Shown here: one piece after another, positions 2,275-59,425 of the stretch | Layout of the letters: each line of letters opens with the position of its first letter | Numbering within the stretch: the stretch's first letter is position 1 | DNA from: Escherichia phage SUSP2 | Sequence record: KT454806 | Strand: one strand, 5' to 3' | Length of the DNA: 64,000 nt | Position numbers and translations under genes: made by a program | Notes under the pieces: generated by a model | Databases searched by the model: none | Seen by the model: the letters and a program-made list of their open reading frames with translations, nothing else | Told to the model about the DNA's origin: nothing

Positions 2275-2440
2275 TCAATGAATCTATGTTTGTTGCTCTG
2301 ACGTTTTCACGAGTACCATTGATATGGTCATCCAGTGCTTTATCTACCTCAGAGTCATCTGCACAGTAAACTCGGAAGATAGCATAACCTTCATCGTCAA
2401 GCACTTCTCCATAGTTCTTCCTGCAATGATTCTTCTTCAT
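2237..2440 (-). CDS. hypothetical protein
   Basis: 67 aa ORF. Confidence 0.35.
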   Translation of the reverse strand: MKKNHCRKNYGEVLDDEGYAIFRVYCADDSEVDKALDDHINGTRENVRATNIDSLIDTSRKRRKKDE

Positions 2441-2441
2441 A

Positions 2442-2822
2442 TCATAGACCTACGCAGGTACGCTTTTCAACAAAATAGTGAACACCTTTGAAAGTTTCAT
2501 CCATCATTTCACTTTCAGTATCACTGACCTTCTCAATGCTTTTGGAATCAAGCAAGTCAACATCCTGAGTGACCATAGCATCAGAAACAGCTTCGTAGTA
2601 GTCTGCCATCACACGATATTTGTAATCAGTAATACGGTCAGACATTTCTATGACAGTTGGAGAAGATAACGGCTTAGTTAACTCCCCAGCATCTGTTACG
2701 ACTTTACGAACAATCTGACAAGCCTCCATAGAGACCTTGCTAAAGTCTGCTTCAGGCATCTTCATAGCTGATGCACCAAAACTCAGAGTTGCCAGAATGA
2801 CACCTACCATAAGCTTTTTCAT
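2442..2822 (-). CDS. secreted/periplasmic protein with N-terminal signal peptide
   Basis: 126 aa; MKKLMVGVILATLSFGASA hydrophobic leader. Confidence 0.5.
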   Translation of the reverse strand: MKKLMVGVILATLSFGASAMKMPEADFSKVSMEACQIVRKVVTDAGELTKPLSSPTVIEMSDRITDYKYRVMADYYEAVSDAMVTQDVDLLDSKSIEKVSDTESEMMDETFKGVHYFVEKRTCVGL

Positions 2823-3180
2823 AACTCACCTCATATAAAATTTTGTATACATTCAAGTATAAAAATAAGCTATAACACCTGACTTGTCAACAGATTTTAT
2901 AGCTTATTTGGCAGATTTTTTATAAGGCTACTGCCATCCTTCCATACCTCACCGCACCCTACTACACCCCCACCTTACCGAACCGCGCCATACCAAACAT
3001 CACTTAAAAACCCTTTTCAAAGACTCTTAAGTGATGTAATCGAATTTTAATGTAGCTCCGATTAACTACCCATACCTCACCTCACCTAACCTCACATTAC
3101 CAAACCGCATACTACCTCATTAAAAGACCCTGTTTAAAGGCCTTTTAAAAAGGAGCCTCCGAAGAGGCTACCTAGTCAAC
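2823..3180. repeat. G-depleted C/A-rich intergenic repeat module A (imperfect copy of 4227-4604)
   Basis: Shares with 4227-4604 the blocks ccatacc(t)tacc.., ctcattaaaagaccctNtttaaagNccttttaaaaagg and the 10-bp-arm palindrome catcacttaa..ttaagtgatg. Confidence 0.6.
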
Positions 3181-51981: not shown

Positions 51982-52267
51982 CACGGTATTCCCTGACGAA
52001 GAAATAGTTAACTTTGTTGCCACCAATAAGTAACTCAAAGCAGGTGTTCTCAAAAGGTGTCTTTGAGGCATCATACGTAGTGTACGGTTCAGACACCTGC
52101 TTAGTGGTGAGTTTCTTGTTGGCGGGATTTAAGAGGCCACCATAAAGTTTCTTGATAGCCTCTTCAACGACACTCCAAGTCATGTCGTCGGTTATTTCTT
52201 CGTACAGGTCGAACTCTCGTTCAAGAACAAAGTCACAAATCGGAAAGACAACCTGTAAACGACTCAT
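51974..52267 (-). CDS. hypothetical protein
   Basis: 97 aa. Confidence 0.45.
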   Translation of the reverse strand: MSRLQVVFPICDFVLEREFDLYEEITDDMTWSVVEEAIKKLYGGLLNPANKKLTTKQVSEPYTTYDASKTPFENTCFELLIGGNKVNYFFVREYRDD

Positions 52268-52662
52268 TAGCGAATTACCTGTGTGACCTGAATAGCTTCG
52301 GTAACAGAAATGTCACCAACTTTTTCTTCAGTGACAAAAGTGAAGGTTAGCTCTACAGGCTCCTTCTCAACTTCCAGTTCTACAGGAACACCATTCAGTT
52401 CATCAAAGATTGATTGGGTAGTCCAATCCTCCTGACCATCTGGGTAGTGGATAGCGTAGAACGGGAACTCTACATCATACCAACCAAATACAGGGCAACC
52501 ATCTTCATCATCACGAACACGACGCAGTGTGTTTCCAGTTTTAAGAAAACGAAGACTTAGGTTTCCGTTAGACTGGAAAATCACACAATCAACAAGTCCT
52601 TTGTTGGGGTCAACCGTGTTGTGGCGAGATGTGTCAACTTTTACAGGAATCTCTTTATTCAT
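52267..52662 (-). CDS. hypothetical protein
   Basis: Start at internal Met (MNKEIPVKV..), 131 aa. Confidence 0.45.
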   Translation of the reverse strand: MNKEIPVKVDTSRHNTVDPNKGLVDCVIFQSNGNLSLRFLKTGNTLRRVRDDEDGCPVFGWYDVEFPFYAIHYPDGQEDWTTQSIFDELNGVPVELEVEKEPVELTFTFVTEEKVGDISVTEAIQVTQVIR

Positions 52663-53065
52663 AATAACCTCTCTCAGCTTTTTCAATCTTATCCAGAAGC
52701 TTGATGCACTGGTTGTTGTGGTAGTTAGCCTCACCCTGATGCAAAGCTTTCTGCTTCTCAAGTAGGCTTTTATAGTAACCGGAAAGCTGCTCTCTTGTCA
52801 AGGGGTGCTCTGAAATAATATCTAAACCATTCTCACCAAGTGGGCTGAACACACCTTCACCATCCACGTTGTATGTGCTTCCTACATAGAAAGAATTGTT
52901 AGCAATCGTGATAGGTGAACGCTCAATTACCTCGACGATAAACTTGCTGTAAACCTTCTCACCTAAAGTTACAACCTTGCTTCCACTGATACGAACCTTC
53001 ATCCCACTACGGGTGTATTTGAAAGTCCCAACATCACTAGCCCAAATCTTCATAGTTTTCTCCAT
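52655..53065 (-). CDS. hypothetical protein
   Basis: 136 aa. Confidence 0.5.
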   Translation of the reverse strand: MEKTMKIWASDVGTFKYTRSGMKVRISGSKVVTLGEKVYSKFIVEVIERSPITIANNSFYVGSTYNVDGEGVFSPLGENGLDIISEHPLTREQLSGYYKSLLEKQKALHQGEANYHNNQCIKLLDKIEKAERGYYE

Positions 53066-53069
53066 AGAA

Positions 53070-53093
53070 ATAAAAAAGGCTCCCGAAGGAGCC
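53070..53093 (-). terminator. rho-independent terminator (minus strand)
   Basis: GGCTCC-ttcg-GGAGCC plus T-run on minus strand downstream of lysozyme gene. Confidence 0.65.
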
Positions 53094-53103
53094 TCTAAAT
53101 CTA

Positions 53104-53568
53104 CTATTTCGGATAAACAGCGTCAAGGTAAATTTTTGCTTCTAAACTACGTCTATTTTTCAGACCCTTAGAAACTTCTTTCTTACCGTTGACTGTTACC
53201 TTGTTCCACCACTGCATAGCTTCAGCACAACCAGCCTTATTACCAGCATTGTGACGCTTGATGAAAGTGGAATCTCTCATAGCTGTGATGCCAATGTTGT
53301 AAGTTTCTACAACGAGAGCATCAAACTCATTTTGGGAAGTTGGAACCTTGATAGCTTTGTTCACCGCACCAACATAGCTTTCAACATCTGCAAGCAGATA
53401 CTGTTCAGCTTGTTCAGAAGTAATCTTCATACCCATCGTAACAGGTTTACCACCAATACGGATTGTCCCGTACCCAATTGTTGGGATTCCAGCAGAGTCT
53501 TTATAGGCTTCTAGACGAAGCCCTTCAAAAAACTTAATTGCTGCAAGCCCCTTATCAGAGAGTTGCAT
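53104..53568 (-). CDS. endolysin, T4-type lysozyme (GH24)
   Basis: N-terminus AAIKFFEGLRLEAYKDSAGIPTIGYG matches the catalytic E..D..T triad region of phage lysozymes. Confidence 0.8.
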   Translation of the reverse strand: MQLSDKGLAAIKFFEGLRLEAYKDSAGIPTIGYGTIRIGGKPVTMGMKITSEQAEQYLLADVESYVGAVNKAIKVPTSQNEFDALVVETYNIGITAMRDSTFIKRHNAGNKAGCAEAMQWWNKVTVNGKKEVSKGLKNRRSLEAKIYLDAVYPK

Positions 53569-53570
53569 TA

Positions 53571-54455
53571 TTAACCTCCTACTTCGTTAACCACAACAGT
53601 AGCTGCATTAGAAGTCACAGAACCACCTGCACCAGTAACTACACAAGTGTATGTTCCGGCATCATCAGCAGTTGTTGCATCCTCTTTTGTGTAAGTCGCT
53701 GAAGTTGCTCCAGAGATGTTATCAGCACCTTTCTTCCACTGGTAACCAGTTGCTCCAGTAGCCACGATGCTCAACTCAAGAGTGTCACCTTCAGTGATTT
53801 CAACGTTTTGCGGCTGCGTAGTGATTACTGGCAAAGCATTCACTGTCACAGTTGCAGCATTTGACGTTACAGTTGCACCACCTTCACCAGTTACTACGCA
53901 GGTGTAAGAACCAGCATCAGCAGGTACTACATTTGATTTGGTGTAAGTTGCAGATGTTGCACCGGAGATGTTACTTGCGCCTTTCTTCCACTGATAACCC
54001 GTAGCACCAGTTGCAACAATACTCAGAGTCAGCGTTCCACCTTCGTTAACAGTCTGGTTAGTAGGCTGCGTAGTGATTACTGGAGGAACTACAGAGTCTT
54101 TCAGTTTTGCGTTCAGCATTGAGAAAGGTTTGACCCTTGCAAGCCATTCACAGTAAACGGTGTCAACGTCTTTACCGTTGATAATTGCATACTGCAAATC
54201 CATGAAGAAATCAGCAGTTCTCATCTGAGCACCAACGCTGTAAAGGAGTTCTGGACTGAATGGGACTGTATAGGCTGGCTCATAAGCAAAGTTGGTCACC
54301 TCTGCAATATCTGCTTCAGGCCAAGGTGAACTGTAAGTCAGTGGTAGAATAGCTTCTTGATATGTTCTGAAGTCATATCTTTTACCAGCTTTAACGTTCG
54401 CAATAAAACCTTTAACGAACTCTTTGAAATCTGGATATGTTTTTGCCTTAATCAT
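53571..54455 (-). CDS. protein with two tandem Ig-like repeats (possible virion-surface or decoration protein)
   Basis: Repeated blocks PVITTQP..TLxLSIVATGATGYQWKKGAxNISGATSATYTK..AGxYTCVVTG; N-terminal domain paralogous to 54448-54822. Confidence 0.55.
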   Translation of the reverse strand: MIKAKTYPDFKEFVKGFIANVKAGKRYDFRTYQEAILPLTYSSPWPEADIAEVTNFAYEPAYTVPFSPELLYSVGAQMRTADFFMDLQYAIINGKDVDTVYCEWLARVKPFSMLNAKLKDSVVPPVITTQPTNQTVNEGGTLTLSIVATGATGYQWKKGASNISGATSATYTKSNVVPADAGSYTCVVTGEGGATVTSNAATVTVNALPVITTQPQNVEITEGDTLELSIVATGATGYQWKKGADNISGATSATYTKEDATTADDAGTYTCVVTGAGGSVTSNAATVVVNEVGG

Positions 54456-54822
54456 TTTTATTAGCCTCTAATCTTGCATTTAATCTGAAGTAGCCTTTGT
54501 GTTTCGGAGAAACATCACCAAGAACTACACCTTCAATTTTATATCCCTTACCAATCACATACTGAATATCCATAAGGAAAGTACCCAGCCCAACAATGTG
54601 GAACATTGGGTAGAGTAATTCTTCAGAATCTGGTAGGTCAATTTTAGGAGTGTATTTGAAGGTTGCAGTGGTTGGTTGGATATCCGTTTCAGGCCATTGA
54701 CTAGTACGCCACGTTAAAGGAGTTGGGAGCACATCATCGAGATTGTACCTCTCACCTTCTTCAATTGTTTGTACATAGGATTGTAGGAAGCAGTAAAAGT
54801 CTTTTCCACTCTTCGCCTTCAT
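54448..54822 (-). CDS. paralog of the N-terminal domain of 53571-54455
   Basis: 124 aa; shared pattern KAK..DF..F..WPE.DI..LLY..MDIQYVI. Confidence 0.5.
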   Translation of the reverse strand: MKAKSGKDFYCFLQSYVQTIEEGERYNLDDVLPTPLTWRTSQWPETDIQPTTATFKYTPKIDLPDSEELLYPMFHIVGLGTFLMDIQYVIGKGYKIEGVVLGDVSPKHKGYFRLNARLEANKND

Positions 54823-54841: not shown

Positions 54842-54860
54842 AAAAAGGGGCTTTCGCCCC
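54842..54860 (-). terminator. rho-independent terminator (minus strand)
   Basis: GGGGC-gaaa-GCCCC plus TTTTT on minus strand. Confidence 0.6.
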
Positions 54861-54867
54861 GAAATAC

Positions 54868-55458
54868 TTAAGCTTTAGTCTTAAGCAGGTTTTTAAGCTT
54901 TTTGAGATTCATGGTCTCATCAAACTTAAAGCCGAATCCATTGACATACTCAATGAACTCAGATTTCTTACTCAAAGCAAGCGCGTAATCCATGTCGAAG
55001 TCATTGCTTGGAGTTGCGTCTGGTGTAGTGTTCACATCAAACGAGATATCTGTAGGTGTCAAGTCACCACTTCTCATGTTGTCCACAAGAACGCATGTGT
55101 AGTTTGCTGGGTAGAATGATACAGAGCCATCAACATAAGTGTACTTGTCATTATGGATAAGATTTGAGAAGACCTTCAGGAAGGTTTCAGCGTCGTGACA
55201 GACAAGTTTAAACTTACTTTCTGCACCAAGAGCCATCAGGGAATATGGACATTCTTCGCTTAGGTCGTATGAAGGGTTCACATTACATACCGTCACACGC
55301 ATCAGGTTATTTGCAATTGTCTTCTGTTTAAAAGTGTCAGGTACGTAGTGCATACCTCTTCCACACTGATTAACCAACTCTTTTAAGAGGTCATTTGCAT
55401 AAGGTGAAGTGACGGATACAGAGCCATCACTATTATAATTAAAACTTACGGTTAACAT
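54868..55458 (-). CDS. hypothetical protein
   Basis: 196 aa. Confidence 0.5.
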   Translation of the reverse strand: MLTVSFNYNSDGSVSVTSPYANDLLKELVNQCGRGMHYVPDTFKQKTIANNLMRVTVCNVNPSYDLSEECPYSLMALGAESKFKLVCHDAETFLKVFSNLIHNDKYTYVDGSVSFYPANYTCVLVDNMRSGDLTPTDISFDVNTTPDATPSNDFDMDYALALSKKSEFIEYVNGFGFKFDETMNLKKLKNLLKTKA

Positions 55459-56076: not shown

Positions 56077-56448
56077 ATGACAAAACGTACAAACAAAGGC
56101 CAATTCAAGAAAGGCCAGTCTGGTAACCCATCTGGAAGACCAAAAGGTTCACGTAACAAGAGTTCTCTTGTAAAAGCCCAATTAACCATTGACAACTCAG
56201 CAGAGTATGCTGCAAAGTTGTTTGAGGCGATTGTTACCAGAGACCCTGTAAAACTTGCAGAGTTTGGACTTTCACCAAATGATGTTCAGATTAAATCTAT
56301 GATGGAAGCTGGTAAGGTCATCATGACCCACTCAGCAGGTGAGATGAAAGCCATCGCTGGGGATGCTAAGAAGGGCGACGATAAAGGCGGAGACAAACCA
56401 CAAGAGAACAAACCAACGTTCTCTGCTGTAGCGACTCTGAAAAAATAA
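56077..56448 (+). CDS. hypothetical basic protein with GNPSGRPKG motif
   Basis: 123 aa; N-terminal KGQFKKGQSGNPSGRPKGSRNK. Confidence 0.5.
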   Translation: MTKRTNKGQFKKGQSGNPSGRPKGSRNKSSLVKAQLTIDNSAEYAAKLFEAIVTRDPVKLAEFGLSPNDVQIKSMMEAGKVIMTHSAGEMKAIAGDAKKGDDKGGDKPQENKPTFSAVATLKK

Positions 56449-56528: not shown

Positions 56529-57944
56529 ATGAGCGATTTATTTAAACATTCGCACCTTCATGCAGGGCGAACTGAAAATGGTGCTGTTAACCATACATCA
56601 TCAATGTCTGCCTTGGTAGACTTCTACAAAGCTGCTGGTTCAAGCCGTGGTAATGTAGAGATTCTCCCAGAGTTGTTCTACAAAGCTTTGCGTGAGGATG
56701 TTGATGTAGCAGTTCGTATTTTACTGCATATGCGAGATGTACGAGAAGGTATGGGTGAGCGTAAAGCTTTCCGAACTGTTCTCTTACAAGCAATCGAAGA
56801 TAACATTCTAGATTCTTTCCAAGTTCTTCGTATCATGGATAAGATTTCTGAATTAGGTCGTTTCGATGACTTCAAAATCTTCGTAGGGACTCGTTATGAG
56901 ACAGATGCTTTCAAGCATTTAGAAGCAGCTTTGTTAGACCCTGATACAGCAGGTTTAGCAGCTAAGTGGTTACCACGAGTAAAACCACGACACAAACAGT
57001 TTGTAAAACGTTTCTGTAAGTTTGCAAACCTGAGTGAGAAAGAATACCGTACACTGTTATCAGCTTTGTCTGATACCGTTGAACAGAAAATCTCTACAAA
57101 TAACTTTGGTGAGATTGACTACAGCAAGATTCCTTCACTGGCTGCTGCACGTTATCAAAAACTGTTCAGCAAAAAAGATGGTGAACGTTATGCAGCTTAC
57201 GTTGAAGCTTTATCCAAGGGTGAAGCAAAGATTAATGCTGGTGCTGTGTACCCATACGATATTCTGAAGTCCGTTAATCACGGTAAAGCAAACGTTGCAA
57301 ACGAACAGTGGAAAGTATTACCAAACTGGATGGCAGAAGGTGAAAACATTCTGTGCATGACAGACGTATCAGCTTCTATGACGTGGCAAACTTTTGGTGC
57401 TGTTACCGCTCTTGATATTGGTCTGTCTTTGGCGTTATACGTCTCAGAACGCAATACAGGGTGCTTTAAAGATGAGTTGATGGTTTACTCCACAAGACCT
57501 CACTTTATTACTCTGAGTGGTGATTTGCAGACTCGTATGCGTCAGGTAATGAACAAGGTTGAGTATGGTTCAACAAACCTGCAAGCAGCATTTGACCGCA
57601 TTCTTGAAATCGGTGTAAGAAATGGCTTGACTCAGGCAGCAATGCCAAGTAAGCTTATTATCTTCTCTGATATGGAGTTCAATCAGGTTGACGGTGCAGA
57701 TGGTTGTACAAACTTCGAAGCAATTCGTAGTAAGTACGAAAAAGCTGGATACGAAATGCCACAACTGGTATTCTGGTACTTAGCAAACCGTAATGGTACT
57801 TGCGAAGTGTCTGTTAAGGATAACGGTGTAGCAATGGTATCGGGGTTCTCTCCAGCCACTTTAAAAGCTCTGCTTGGTGGTGAGAAGTTTGACCCAATCA
57901 GCGTAATGCTCAAAGCAGTAATGATTGACCGTTACATCTGGTAA
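56529..57944 (+). CDS. vWA-domain protein, possibly Ro60-like (TROVE plus vWA architecture)
   Basis: 471 aa; MIDAS-like DVSAS in CMTDVSASMTW at about residue 277; TROVE assignment of the N-terminal 260 aa is tentative. Confidence 0.5.
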   Translation: MSDLFKHSHLHAGRTENGAVNHTSSMSALVDFYKAAGSSRGNVEILPELFYKALREDVDVAVRILLHMRDVREGMGERKAFRTVLLQAIEDNILDSFQVLRIMDKISELGRFDDFKIFVGTRYETDAFKHLEAALLDPDTAGLAAKWLPRVKPRHKQFVKRFCKFANLSEKEYRTLLSALSDTVEQKISTNNFGEIDYSKIPSLAAARYQKLFSKKDGERYAAYVEALSKGEAKINAGAVYPYDILKSVNHGKANVANEQWKVLPNWMAEGENILCMTDVSASMTWQTFGAVTALDIGLSLALYVSERNTGCFKDELMVYSTRPHFITLSGDLQTRMRQVMNKVEYGSTNLQAAFDRILEIGVRNGLTQAAMPSKLIIFSDMEFNQVDGADGCTNFEAIRSKYEKAGYEMPQLVFWYLANRNGTCEVSVKDNGVAMVSGFSPATLKALLGGEKFDPISVMLKAVMIDRYIW

Positions 57945-58110: not shown

Positions 58111-58187
58111 CTCCGTTTAGCTCAGTTTGGTAGAGTGCGCCGTTTGGGGCGGTGAGGTCGAAGGTTCAATCCCTTCAACGGAGACCA
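58111..58187 (+). tRNA. tRNA-Pro (anticodon UGG)
   Basis: Hand-folded cloverleaf: acceptor ctccgtt/aacggag, anticodon loop tttgggg, T-arm gaagg-ttcaatc-ccttc, encoded CCA. Confidence 0.75.
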
Positions 58188-58194
58188 AATTAAT

Positions 58195-58272
58195 GTTCCA
58201 GTAGACAAATTGGTAAAGTCACCACACTTTCAATGTGGAGTTTTGAGGGTTCAAGTCCCTTCTGGAACGCCA
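58195..58272 (+). tRNA. tRNA-Glu (UUC)
   Basis: Acceptor gttccag/ctggaac, anticodon loop ctttcaa, CCA. Confidence 0.75.
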
Positions 58273-58355
58273 AATTTGACAGAAGACCAAGTACAGCAAA
58301 TAACTTTACTTTTCGCGCATAGAAAACTTAAAAGTTTGGTCTGGTCATAAAAGTT

Positions 58356-58432
58356 CGCGGGTATAGAGAAAGGGCGTCTCACATGTCTCATTAGCATGGT
58401 ATCGGCAGGTTCGACTCCTGCACCCGCCTCCA
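58356..58432 (+). tRNA. tRNA-like gene, anticodon CAU (Met/Ile2/fMet undetermined)
   Basis: T-arm gcagg-ttcgact-cctgc, anticodon loop ctcatta; 1-72 mismatch and unusual discriminator. Confidence 0.4.
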
Positions 58433-58514
58433 AATTTGCAGAAGACCGTTTACAGCAATCTCAAAAATTTTTATCGGAAAAAATGAAAAGATACGGTCTG
58501 GCAATACTAAACAT

Positions 58515-58591
58515 GGTGAGGAAGCACATAAGGCATGTGCGGTCGGCTGTTAACCGAATGGTATAGGGTTCGAATCCCTAACTCACCGCCA
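58515..58591 (+). tRNA. tRNA-Asn (GUU)
   Basis: Anticodon loop ctgttaa, T-arm taggg-ttcgaat-cccta, CCA. Confidence 0.7.
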
Positions 58592-58651
58592 AGATTTGGG
58601 AGAGAAGCGTAATGCTCACCGATTTGTAAGGTGCAAGTCCTTAGCCTGAAT

Positions 58652-58739
58652 AGAATAAAATGCGTCGTTATCCCGTAGATGGAAGCGGTGGTGACTGTAA
58701 ATCACTTGTCATTATGACTCGGTAGGTTCGACTCCTTCA
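58652..58739 (+). tRNA. tRNA-Tyr (GUA), long variable arm
   Basis: Acceptor gcgtcgt/acggcgc, anticodon loop ctgtaaa, 88 nt. Confidence 0.65.
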
Positions 58740-58745
58740 CGGCGC

Positions 58746-58823
58746 ACCAAATAAAGGTTATGTAGTTTAATCTGGTTAAAATACTCCCCTGTCACGGGAG
58801 ATGATGAGGGTTCGAATCCCTTC
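58746..58823 (+). tRNA. tRNA-Asp (GUC)
   Basis: Anticodon loop ctgtcac, stem ctccc/gggag, CCA. Confidence 0.75.
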
Positions 58824-59261
58824 GTAACCGCCAAATTTGAGAGGGCTTTTTAGCCCCTCCCTTAAAGAGTTCTTACGAGTATTCTTTAAAGGAGCAGAAG
58901 ACCAAATTCAGCAAGCCAACTTAAAAAATTTCAAGCCAATTTAATTTTGAAAAATTTAAAACTTGGTCTGGCTCAACAAATTTACAGAAGACCGTTTACA
59001 GCAAGTATAAAACAATCTATTTCTCTGGTAAAGAAAAGGCGAAGGTTCGATTCCTTCACACGTTACGGCGTGTTGGTGTAATGGTAGCACTTAAGATAAA
59101 ACAACGGTCTGGTAATCTTCTTTGCAGTGACTTATGGAGCTAAATGCCGTCCCATGAGTGCCGATGAATTTCCTTAGCATGATTCTAGATTAGCTTAATA
59201 GGAAATGACTCTACAAACCCTTTAGCAAGGTTTGCGTAGGTTACTGCAAAGATGATTTAAT

Positions 59262-59337
59262 GGGAGTGTAGCAGAATGGTGATGCGGCAGACTTTTAATC
59301 TGACAGGCGACGGGTTCGAATCCCTCCACTCCTACCA
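59262..59337 (+). tRNA. tRNA-Lys (UUU)
   Basis: Acceptor gggagtg/cactcct, anticodon loop cttttaa; weak T-stem. Confidence 0.6.
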
Positions 59338-59343
59338 AATAAT

Positions 59344-59420
59344 GGTTCAGTCGCAGATAAGGTAATGCAAGGGTTTCATAAGCCCTATGAATGTGGGTTC
59401 GAATCCCATCTGAACCTCCA
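59344..59420 (+). tRNA. tRNA-Met-type (CAU)
   Basis: Acceptor ggttcag/ctgaacc, anticodon loop ttcataa. Confidence 0.65.
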
Positions 59421-59425
59421 ATTAT

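Follow-up and report, generated by a model that had tools for sequence, protein, structure and literature searches.

Escherichia phage SUSP2 (sequence record KT454806) carries a three-gene block, in the order short capsid-binding-domain (CapBD) paralog, Hex-Dec and endolysin, within the 64,000-nucleotide (nt) stretch analysed here, which we refer to as the window. All features of the block lie on the minus strand. The first gene (54448..54822) encodes a CapBD-only protein of 124 amino acids (aa) and 14.3 kDa that belongs to phrog_4463, and the second (53571..54455) a 294-aa, 31 kDa protein of phrog_3995 (E=8e-164), in which the CapBD (aa 1-120; 54096..54455) is followed by two immunoglobulin (Ig)-like units. 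Directly downstream of this long gene, the endolysin gene (53104..53568) ends the block and encodes a 154-aa GH24 phage lysozyme (Pfam PF00959, Phage_lysozyme, E=3.1e-39; phrog_7). We conclude that the long protein is a Hoc-like capsid decoration protein of a kind already described, and that the short gene is an old, anchor-only paralog whose product may have an accessory role. Taken as a whole, this account is probably the right one.

Terminator-like hairpins flank the block at both ends. The upstream hairpin, GGGGCGAAAGCCCC followed by TTTTT (54847..54860), leaves a space of only 24 nt before the short-gene ATG, while the second (9 bp with 5 GC pairs, plus a T-run; 53075..53096) stands directly after the endolysin and closes the block; phage Mijalis has annotated terminators at positions equivalent to both. 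A sigma-70 promoter scan returned sites no more numerous than in shuffled sequence and defined no promoter for the block. The short-gene stop codon and the long-gene start codon share an 8-nt overlap (ATGATTAA; 54448..54455), which would allow translational coupling, and both genes have a Shine-Dalgarno sequence (AAGGA and GAGG). The corresponding junction in Mooglevirus and Felixounavirus relatives is a 4-nt overlap, a plain ATGA. The 2.5-kb locus is 98% identical to that of Escherichia phage phiSUSP1 (Suspvirus, Ounavirinae), and DNA similar to the region was found in 154 phage records of Felixounavirus, Mooglevirus and Suspvirus. We also weighed the possibility that a programmed frameshift joins the short gene to the long one, and discarded it: the 8-nt overlap contains no canonical slippery heptamer, and the other genera have only the 4-nt ATGA.

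A first-pass annotation of the window, made from the letters alone, had placed two tandem genes at these positions beside the endolysin, and had proposed that they arose by duplication and divergence, the longer copy having gained two Ig-like repeats. All of this is borne out. BLASTP aligns the short protein with residues 2-119 of its longer neighbour (35% identity, E=1e-16), each protein matches the other's PHROG family (short protein against phrog_3995, 6.5e-16; long protein against phrog_4463, 6.1e-14), and profile-profile comparison with hhalign gives a probability of 99.1% (E=4.5e-19) over 116 columns. The similarity is far beyond chance. The same annotation had further taken the shared module to be surface-exposed or carbohydrate-binding, and here it went astray: the roughly 120 residues common to the two proteins are the CapBD. 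Since only the long gene has the outward-facing Ig-like domains, the exposed part is not the common module. The duplicated module is the buried capsid anchor, and a further, distinct round of duplication inside the long gene gave the Ig-like repeats.

The identity of the long protein follows from its near-identity to solved structures. Searched against the Protein Data Bank (PDB) with phmmer, it matches 9ncf_S (E=6.8e-216) and 9c2d_S (E=2.1e-174) nearly end to end, starting from residue 1, and its orthologs are Sf14 gp20, Bas63 Hex-Dec and Felix O1 gp36. Compared with Sf14 gp20 and Bas63 Hex-Dec, its CapBD is about 90% identical, arginines R79 and R107 are kept, the repeats are of the same Ig_3/I-set type and the gene occupies the same site beside the endolysin; the sole difference lies in the number of Ig-like units, which is two here, three in Sf14 and four in Bas63. 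Cryo-electron microscopy (cryo-EM) of the Sf14 virion (PDB 9C2D/9C3A, chain S) and of Bas63 (9NCF, chain S) has shown the CapBD wedged in the centre of the major-capsid-protein hexamer, where Hex-Dec/gp20 acts as a monomeric, Hoc-like decoration that is bound to the pentamer-proximal hexamers of a T=9 capsid and leaves the facet-centre hexamers empty (PMC11821841, PMC12609058). The CapBD of Sf14 comprises the N-terminal 118 aa, with R79 and R107 forming salt bridges to the Asp221 ring of the major capsid protein (PMC11821841). The one to four Ig-like domains that follow it are flexible and outward-pointing, and the structure authors themselves put forward a Hoc-like adhesion or aggregation role for them as an inference (PMC11821841, PMC12609058). 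The Sf14 paper also names 'SUSP1 gp121' as a two-Ig variant (PMC11821841).

The residues on which this anchoring depends are conserved. R79 and R107 are invariant in the alignment of 30 unique long sequences (30/30), the window protein included, and the long CapBD evolves under strong constraint, with a ratio of nonsynonymous to synonymous substitution rates (dN/dS) of 0.04. On the partner side, the major capsid protein of phiSUSP1 is nearly the same as its counterparts in Bas63 (9ncf_A, E=3.7e-236) and Sf14 (2e-232) and keeps the equivalent of Asp221, the aspartate of ...KIRDAYL.... In addition, Felix O1 gp36 has been detected in virions by mass spectrometry at 44% coverage. The long protein is thus a Hex-Dec capsid decoration protein, a result that was already available for its orthologs and is not new in itself. 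With cryo-EM structures at hand for Sf14 and Bas63, we infer that in a SUSP2-type virion it would sit at the centres of the pentamer-proximal hexamers, its N-terminal 120 residues binding the hexamer centre as a monomer and its two Ig-like domains projecting outward.

Most database records assign this gene to the tail or to a tail fibre. GenBank, RefSeq and PHROG use the labels 'tail protein', 'tail fiber protein' and 'major tail protein', next to 'capsid decoration protein' and 'hypothetical', and Ig-like domains do occur on tail tube proteins, as the matches to phrog_158 and phrog_853 illustrate. The similarity to tail proteins is nevertheless limited to the Ig-like domains, and two independent cryo-EM structures place the orthologous N-terminal domain at capsid hexamer centres. 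Because the long protein is an ortholog of the Sf14 gp20 and Bas63 Hex-Dec proteins seen in those structures, it is a capsid decoration and not a tail protein; for the orthologs PDB 9C2D and 9NCF already rule the tail assignment out, and it is extremely improbable for SUSP2. Correcting these widespread 'tail protein' and 'tail fiber' annotations is the main practical value of the long-gene result.

The number of Ig-like units varies between phages. Pfam recognises two Ig-like domains in the window protein (Ig_3, E=1.6e-20; I-set, 3.7e-15), at about aa 124-205 and 209-289. At the level of repeat units, the first spans aa 125-208 (53832..54083; Ig_3, Ig_2, I-set) and the second, together with a short C-terminal tail, aa 209-294 (53574..53831; I-set at aa 209-285). 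Between the two units, identity is 77% at the protein level (E=6e-39) and 76% at the DNA level, and their longest common exact run is a 20-nt direct repeat, CCAGTAATCACTACGCAGCC on the gene strand, which encodes PVITTQP and stands at the start of unit 1 (54064..54083) and again at the start of unit 2 (53812..53831). Tandem Repeats Finder did not report this 252-nt repeat in the locus, and it was characterised by direct alignment. Over 33 loci, the long protein measures 210, 294-298, 372-377 or 461 aa, corresponding to one to four Ig-like units. The one Suspvirus allele examined at the DNA level, the one-Ig allele of phage mistaenkt, is missing exactly unit 1 of the window, 252 nt in length, and the left and right breakpoints of this deletion fall at the unit-1 and unit-2 copies of the 20-nt repeat, respectively. 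A 252-nt unit flanked by 20-nt direct repeats indicates unequal recombination or slippage, and events of this kind at the PVITTQP linkers would be the simplest mechanism for the loss and gain of units. A different kind of variant is seen in the 209-aa cluster representative P0054 (compare L010, 211 aa), which is apparently frameshifted, reading ...GYQWKRMVRISLVPPLQ... after the first half of Ig unit 1. Since P0054 looks frameshifted rather than cleanly deleted, some one-Ig alleles may be truncations and not unit deletions; the Sf14 paper makes a comparable remark on premature stop codons in CHB7 (PMC11821841).

The short gene is the less familiar member of the pair. Its product has the sequence and the predicted fold of the CapBD over its full length and ends with that domain at 124 aa, with no Ig-like display domain and no Pfam match. 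Searches of Pfam, NCBIfam and PHROG with the short protein found no functional family, the one match being phrog_4463 ('unknown function'). A word-indexed protein search with it recovered close relatives only, at 72% identity or more, and an exhaustive HMMER search of 1.84 billion representatives yielded 12 clusters, all from Ounavirinae-like loci. The family therefore seems to be small, with no functional lead from elsewhere, at least as far as these searches reach. Its members include Sf14 gp21, Felix O1 ORF37 and VpaE1 gp40. Our literature search found no paper that mentions the short paralog: the wV8 proteome paper and two recent Sf14 papers are silent on both genes, and neither cryo-EM paper mentions the short one (PMC11821841, PMC12609058). 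The short gene is a modest but genuine blank in an otherwise well-studied phage group.

The 124-aa gene is an old tandem duplicate of the CapBD alone. In 231 of 251 phage records the two genes are adjacent and ordered as they are here, and the pair also occurs in a divergent 87-kb metagenomic phage whose short copy is 43% identical to that of the window. (A scan of IMG/VR for P0055 gave no match, and the context of P0055 was taken from an exact-sequence match.) In a neighbour-joining tree, the short and long copies fall into separate clades, each of which includes the divergent 87-kb phage, so that the duplication predates the split from that phage. In Kolesnikvirus and in relatives further removed, this position is occupied by just one CapBD gene.

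Could the short gene be a redundant duplicate without a function of its own, decaying toward loss? An intact copy is missing from 20 of the 251 records (about 8%), which have a remnant only, with an internal deletion of some 226 nt, and the short copy does evolve faster than the long CapBD. Its dN/dS is nonetheless 0.12 (422 pairs, median dS 0.78), its open reading frame (ORF) is intact in the divergent phage despite 43% identity, and a good Shine-Dalgarno sequence precedes it. Furthermore, the five remnant loci examined, all Felixounavirus isolates (mio, SP116, fKMPT1, REP10 and Tf), have the same gap (~192 nt), which points to one shared allele and not to repeated decay; the remnant lies at 2306-2498 of the mio locus (L004), and L005, L038, L039 and L040 have the same allele. 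Decay, already disfavoured, is accordingly very unlikely: the short gene is real and under purifying selection. The five isolates come from Denmark, China, India and the USA, with one record lacking a country, so a single deletion allele has spread widely. A remnant allele shared among natural phages also implies that the short gene is dispensable.

What sets the short copy apart is the surface that corresponds to the anchor of Hex-Dec. In the alignment, the position of R79 is occupied by G in 30/30 short-family sequences, and that of R107 by Q (15), H (12), N (2) or K (1). The (R/K)-x-K-P-F/Y motif reads K-G-Y in the short copy, and a stretch of the short protein, LLYPMFHIVGLGTFLMDIQYVIGKGY, is nearly invariant across the short family. 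Because both anchoring arginines and the (R/K)-x-K-P-F/Y motif have been replaced here while being kept in the long copy and in most single-copy relatives, the short gene is the derived copy. Judged by these substitutions, the short copy has rebuilt the very surface that anchors Hex-Dec to the capsid.

The loss of both arginines and of the KPF motif, together with the almost invariant new stretch, would also suit a protein that has kept only the CapBD fold and taken on a capsid-unrelated function, for example binding a host or defence protein. Such a departure would fit the finding that the short copy evolves about three times faster than the long CapBD, that its product has not been reported in virions, and that the gene is not part of the structural module but has small genes of unknown function around it. 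Against it stand the tight linkage to Hex-Dec, with an overlap of 4-8 nt at every locus examined, and the lack of any Pfam or NCBIfam match that would assign it to a functional family. The timing of expression argues in the same direction: in Felix O1, expression of ORF36 and of ORF37 is highest at 60 min, as is that of ORFs assigned to the portal and tail fibre, while the lysin ORF35 peaks at 25 min. Genes for host takeover are typically early. We consider a capsid-unrelated function unlikely.

Alternatively, the short protein may itself be a decoration of the virion, sitting in the centres of capsomers not filled by Hex-Dec, for instance the 20 hexamers at the icosahedral 3-fold axes, or at a small number of special positions. 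It is predicted to have a complete CapBD fold and, in Felix O1, is expressed late alongside structural genes. Hex-Dec is confined to the pentamer-proximal hexamers, 60 of 80 by T=9 geometry, and the short copy has replaced exactly the Asp221-binding arginines, as would be expected of a retargeted anchor. The Sf14 authors attribute the pentamer-proximal restriction to a different geometry of Asp221 in the 3-fold hexamers (PMC11821841). A decoration of this kind could have been missed so far because averaging would erase a small monomer that sits on a symmetry axis. The structures and proteomes nevertheless speak against it. The Bas63 paper reports no density on the other hexamers, consistent with the distribution of gp20 in Sf14 (PMC12609058), and the asymmetric Sf14 map shows gp20 protrusions only (PMC11821841). 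ORF37 is not among the 17 virion proteins of Felix O1, in which proteins of 9.7-13.7 kDa were detected, and gp40 is not among the 22 of VpaE1, as deduced from the text of a paper that gives its protein list as a figure. Phages lacking the short gene are, moreover, viable. On balance, we find a stable place on the virion rather unlikely.

A third possibility is that the short paralog is a site- or state-selective binder of hexamer centres, for instance those of the 20 facet-centre hexamers or of the unexpanded prohead, and that it sets where and when Hex-Dec loads. If so, it would explain why Hex-Dec is limited to the pentamer-proximal hexamers, and the natural deletion phages (mio, SP116, Tf) would show a different pattern of Hex-Dec occupancy. 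In this specific form the idea is improbable.

Our own proposal, the likeliest of these readings though still tentative, is broader: the short protein may be a late, dispensable accessory factor, and no stoichiometric part of the virion, that still acts on the capsid hexamer or on the loading of Hex-Dec, perhaps through short-lived binding to a hexamer state or site left unused by Hex-Dec. Several points weigh against this proposal or blunt the evidence behind it. Firstly, the loss of both arginine anchors could equally mean that the short protein no longer binds capsids at all. Secondly, the AlphaFold2 model of the short protein is of moderate confidence (pLDDT 66, pTM 0.68, from 11 sequences), and the Asp221 partner was checked in phiSUSP1, the major capsid gene lying outside the window. 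The late expression is taken from a semi-quantitative reverse-transcription PCR (RT-PCR) table for Felix O1, a phage other than SUSP2. Additionally, absence from virions rests on two older proteomes, one with a 25% coverage cut-off and the other prepared with 30-kDa filters, which may lose a 14-kDa protein, and for VpaE1 it derives from the wording of the paper and not from the protein list. Finally, icosahedrally averaged maps would blur a monomer on a 3-fold axis.

Most Felix O1-, Moogle- and SUSP1-type phages carry the short gene, a conserved, late-peaking (by Felix O1 RT-PCR), cut-down copy of a capsid anchor, and several members of this group are in use for Salmonella typing, biocontrol or therapy. 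If its product influences where or when Hex-Dec loads, it would offer a simple genetic handle on capsid surface display, including the CapBD-type display of antigens or ligands. If it has instead left the capsid, it would illustrate how a structural domain can be put to a new use. The deletion alleles are ready-made natural knockouts, a control experiment provided by nature.

The surroundings of the block have features of their own. At all loci examined, the CapBD gene or gene pair is directly preceded by a gene for a phrog_4034-type protein with no Pfam match, which in the window encodes 196 aa (54868-55458, minus strand) and measures 206 aa in Kolesnikvirus and 183-195 aa in distant metagenomic relatives. 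Divergent from the CapBD block are the genes for a 123-aa DUF5681 protein (56077-56448, plus strand) and a 471-aa DUF2828/DUF7788 protein (56529-57944, plus strand) labelled 'RNA-binding protein' or 'vWFA protein', a pairing that is kept in the most distant CapBD loci found (L041 and L043). In L041, a distant metagenomic relative, an HNH_3 endonuclease gene (2416-2976, minus strand) sits beside the DUF5681 gene, between it and the divergent CapBD block; no gene occupies that position in the window. Downstream of the DUF5681 and DUF2828 genes, the window carries 25 transfer RNA (tRNA) genes (58111-63578, plus strand), among them two tRNA-Met, tRNA-Lys(CTT) and three tRNA-Leu, and the RefSeq tRNA annotation is far sparser across the compared part of phiSUSP1. 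Past the endolysin terminator, the program-made list gives two ORFs of 164 and 136 aa (52267-53065, minus strand) that overlap by about 107 nt. Their phiSUSP1 RefSeq counterparts are shorter, barely overlapping genes of 390 and 399 nt, and the 164-aa ORF probably starts elsewhere than at its listed TTG.

Set against known systems, the short paralog has the fold of Sf14 gp20 and Bas63 Hex-Dec in common, but neither an Ig-like domain nor either arginine anchor. For the long protein, one point of reference is T4 Hoc, which is non-essential. Like Hoc, for which a role in adhesion or aggregation has been suggested, the long protein is a monomer at the hexamer centre with an outward string of Ig-like domains (PMC11821841, PMC12609058); unlike members of the Hoc family, it does not have a homologous capsid-binding domain C-terminal to the Ig-like domains. 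It also matches pb10-type 'Decoration protein' chains of phage T5 (8zvi_a, 5lxk_A; E ~1e-10), a similarity confined to query aa 124-207, whereas the capsid-binding domains have no detected similarity by sequence or fold.

Comparable too are Kolesnikvirus (Erwinia phage M7 gp008) and the uncultured P0058-P0061, which have the same CapBD (profile E 3e-8 to 5e-4) in the same slot, downstream of a gene of ~185-205 aa and, where downstream DNA was at hand, upstream of a lysozyme gene. They differ in having one CapBD gene and not two, with a display domain of the Big_2, Big-like or I-set type. Labels for the Kolesnikvirus CapBD-Big_2 protein are inconsistent and include 'tail protein', 'structural protein', 'Ig-like domain containing protein' and 'cgkA: kappa-carrageenase'. 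In P0061 the Ig-like domain is absent and a K/S/E-rich tail takes its place, which shows that such a locus may have a CapBD without Ig-like domains as its sole observed CapBD gene. Ig-like domains on phage structural proteins are reportedly often added through programmed frameshifts, giving forms with and without the domain, as Fraser et al. are said to have described in 2006. The SUSP2 locus resembles such cases in that one locus gives a virion-binding module with and without Ig-like domains, but here the two forms are separate, diverged paralogous genes.

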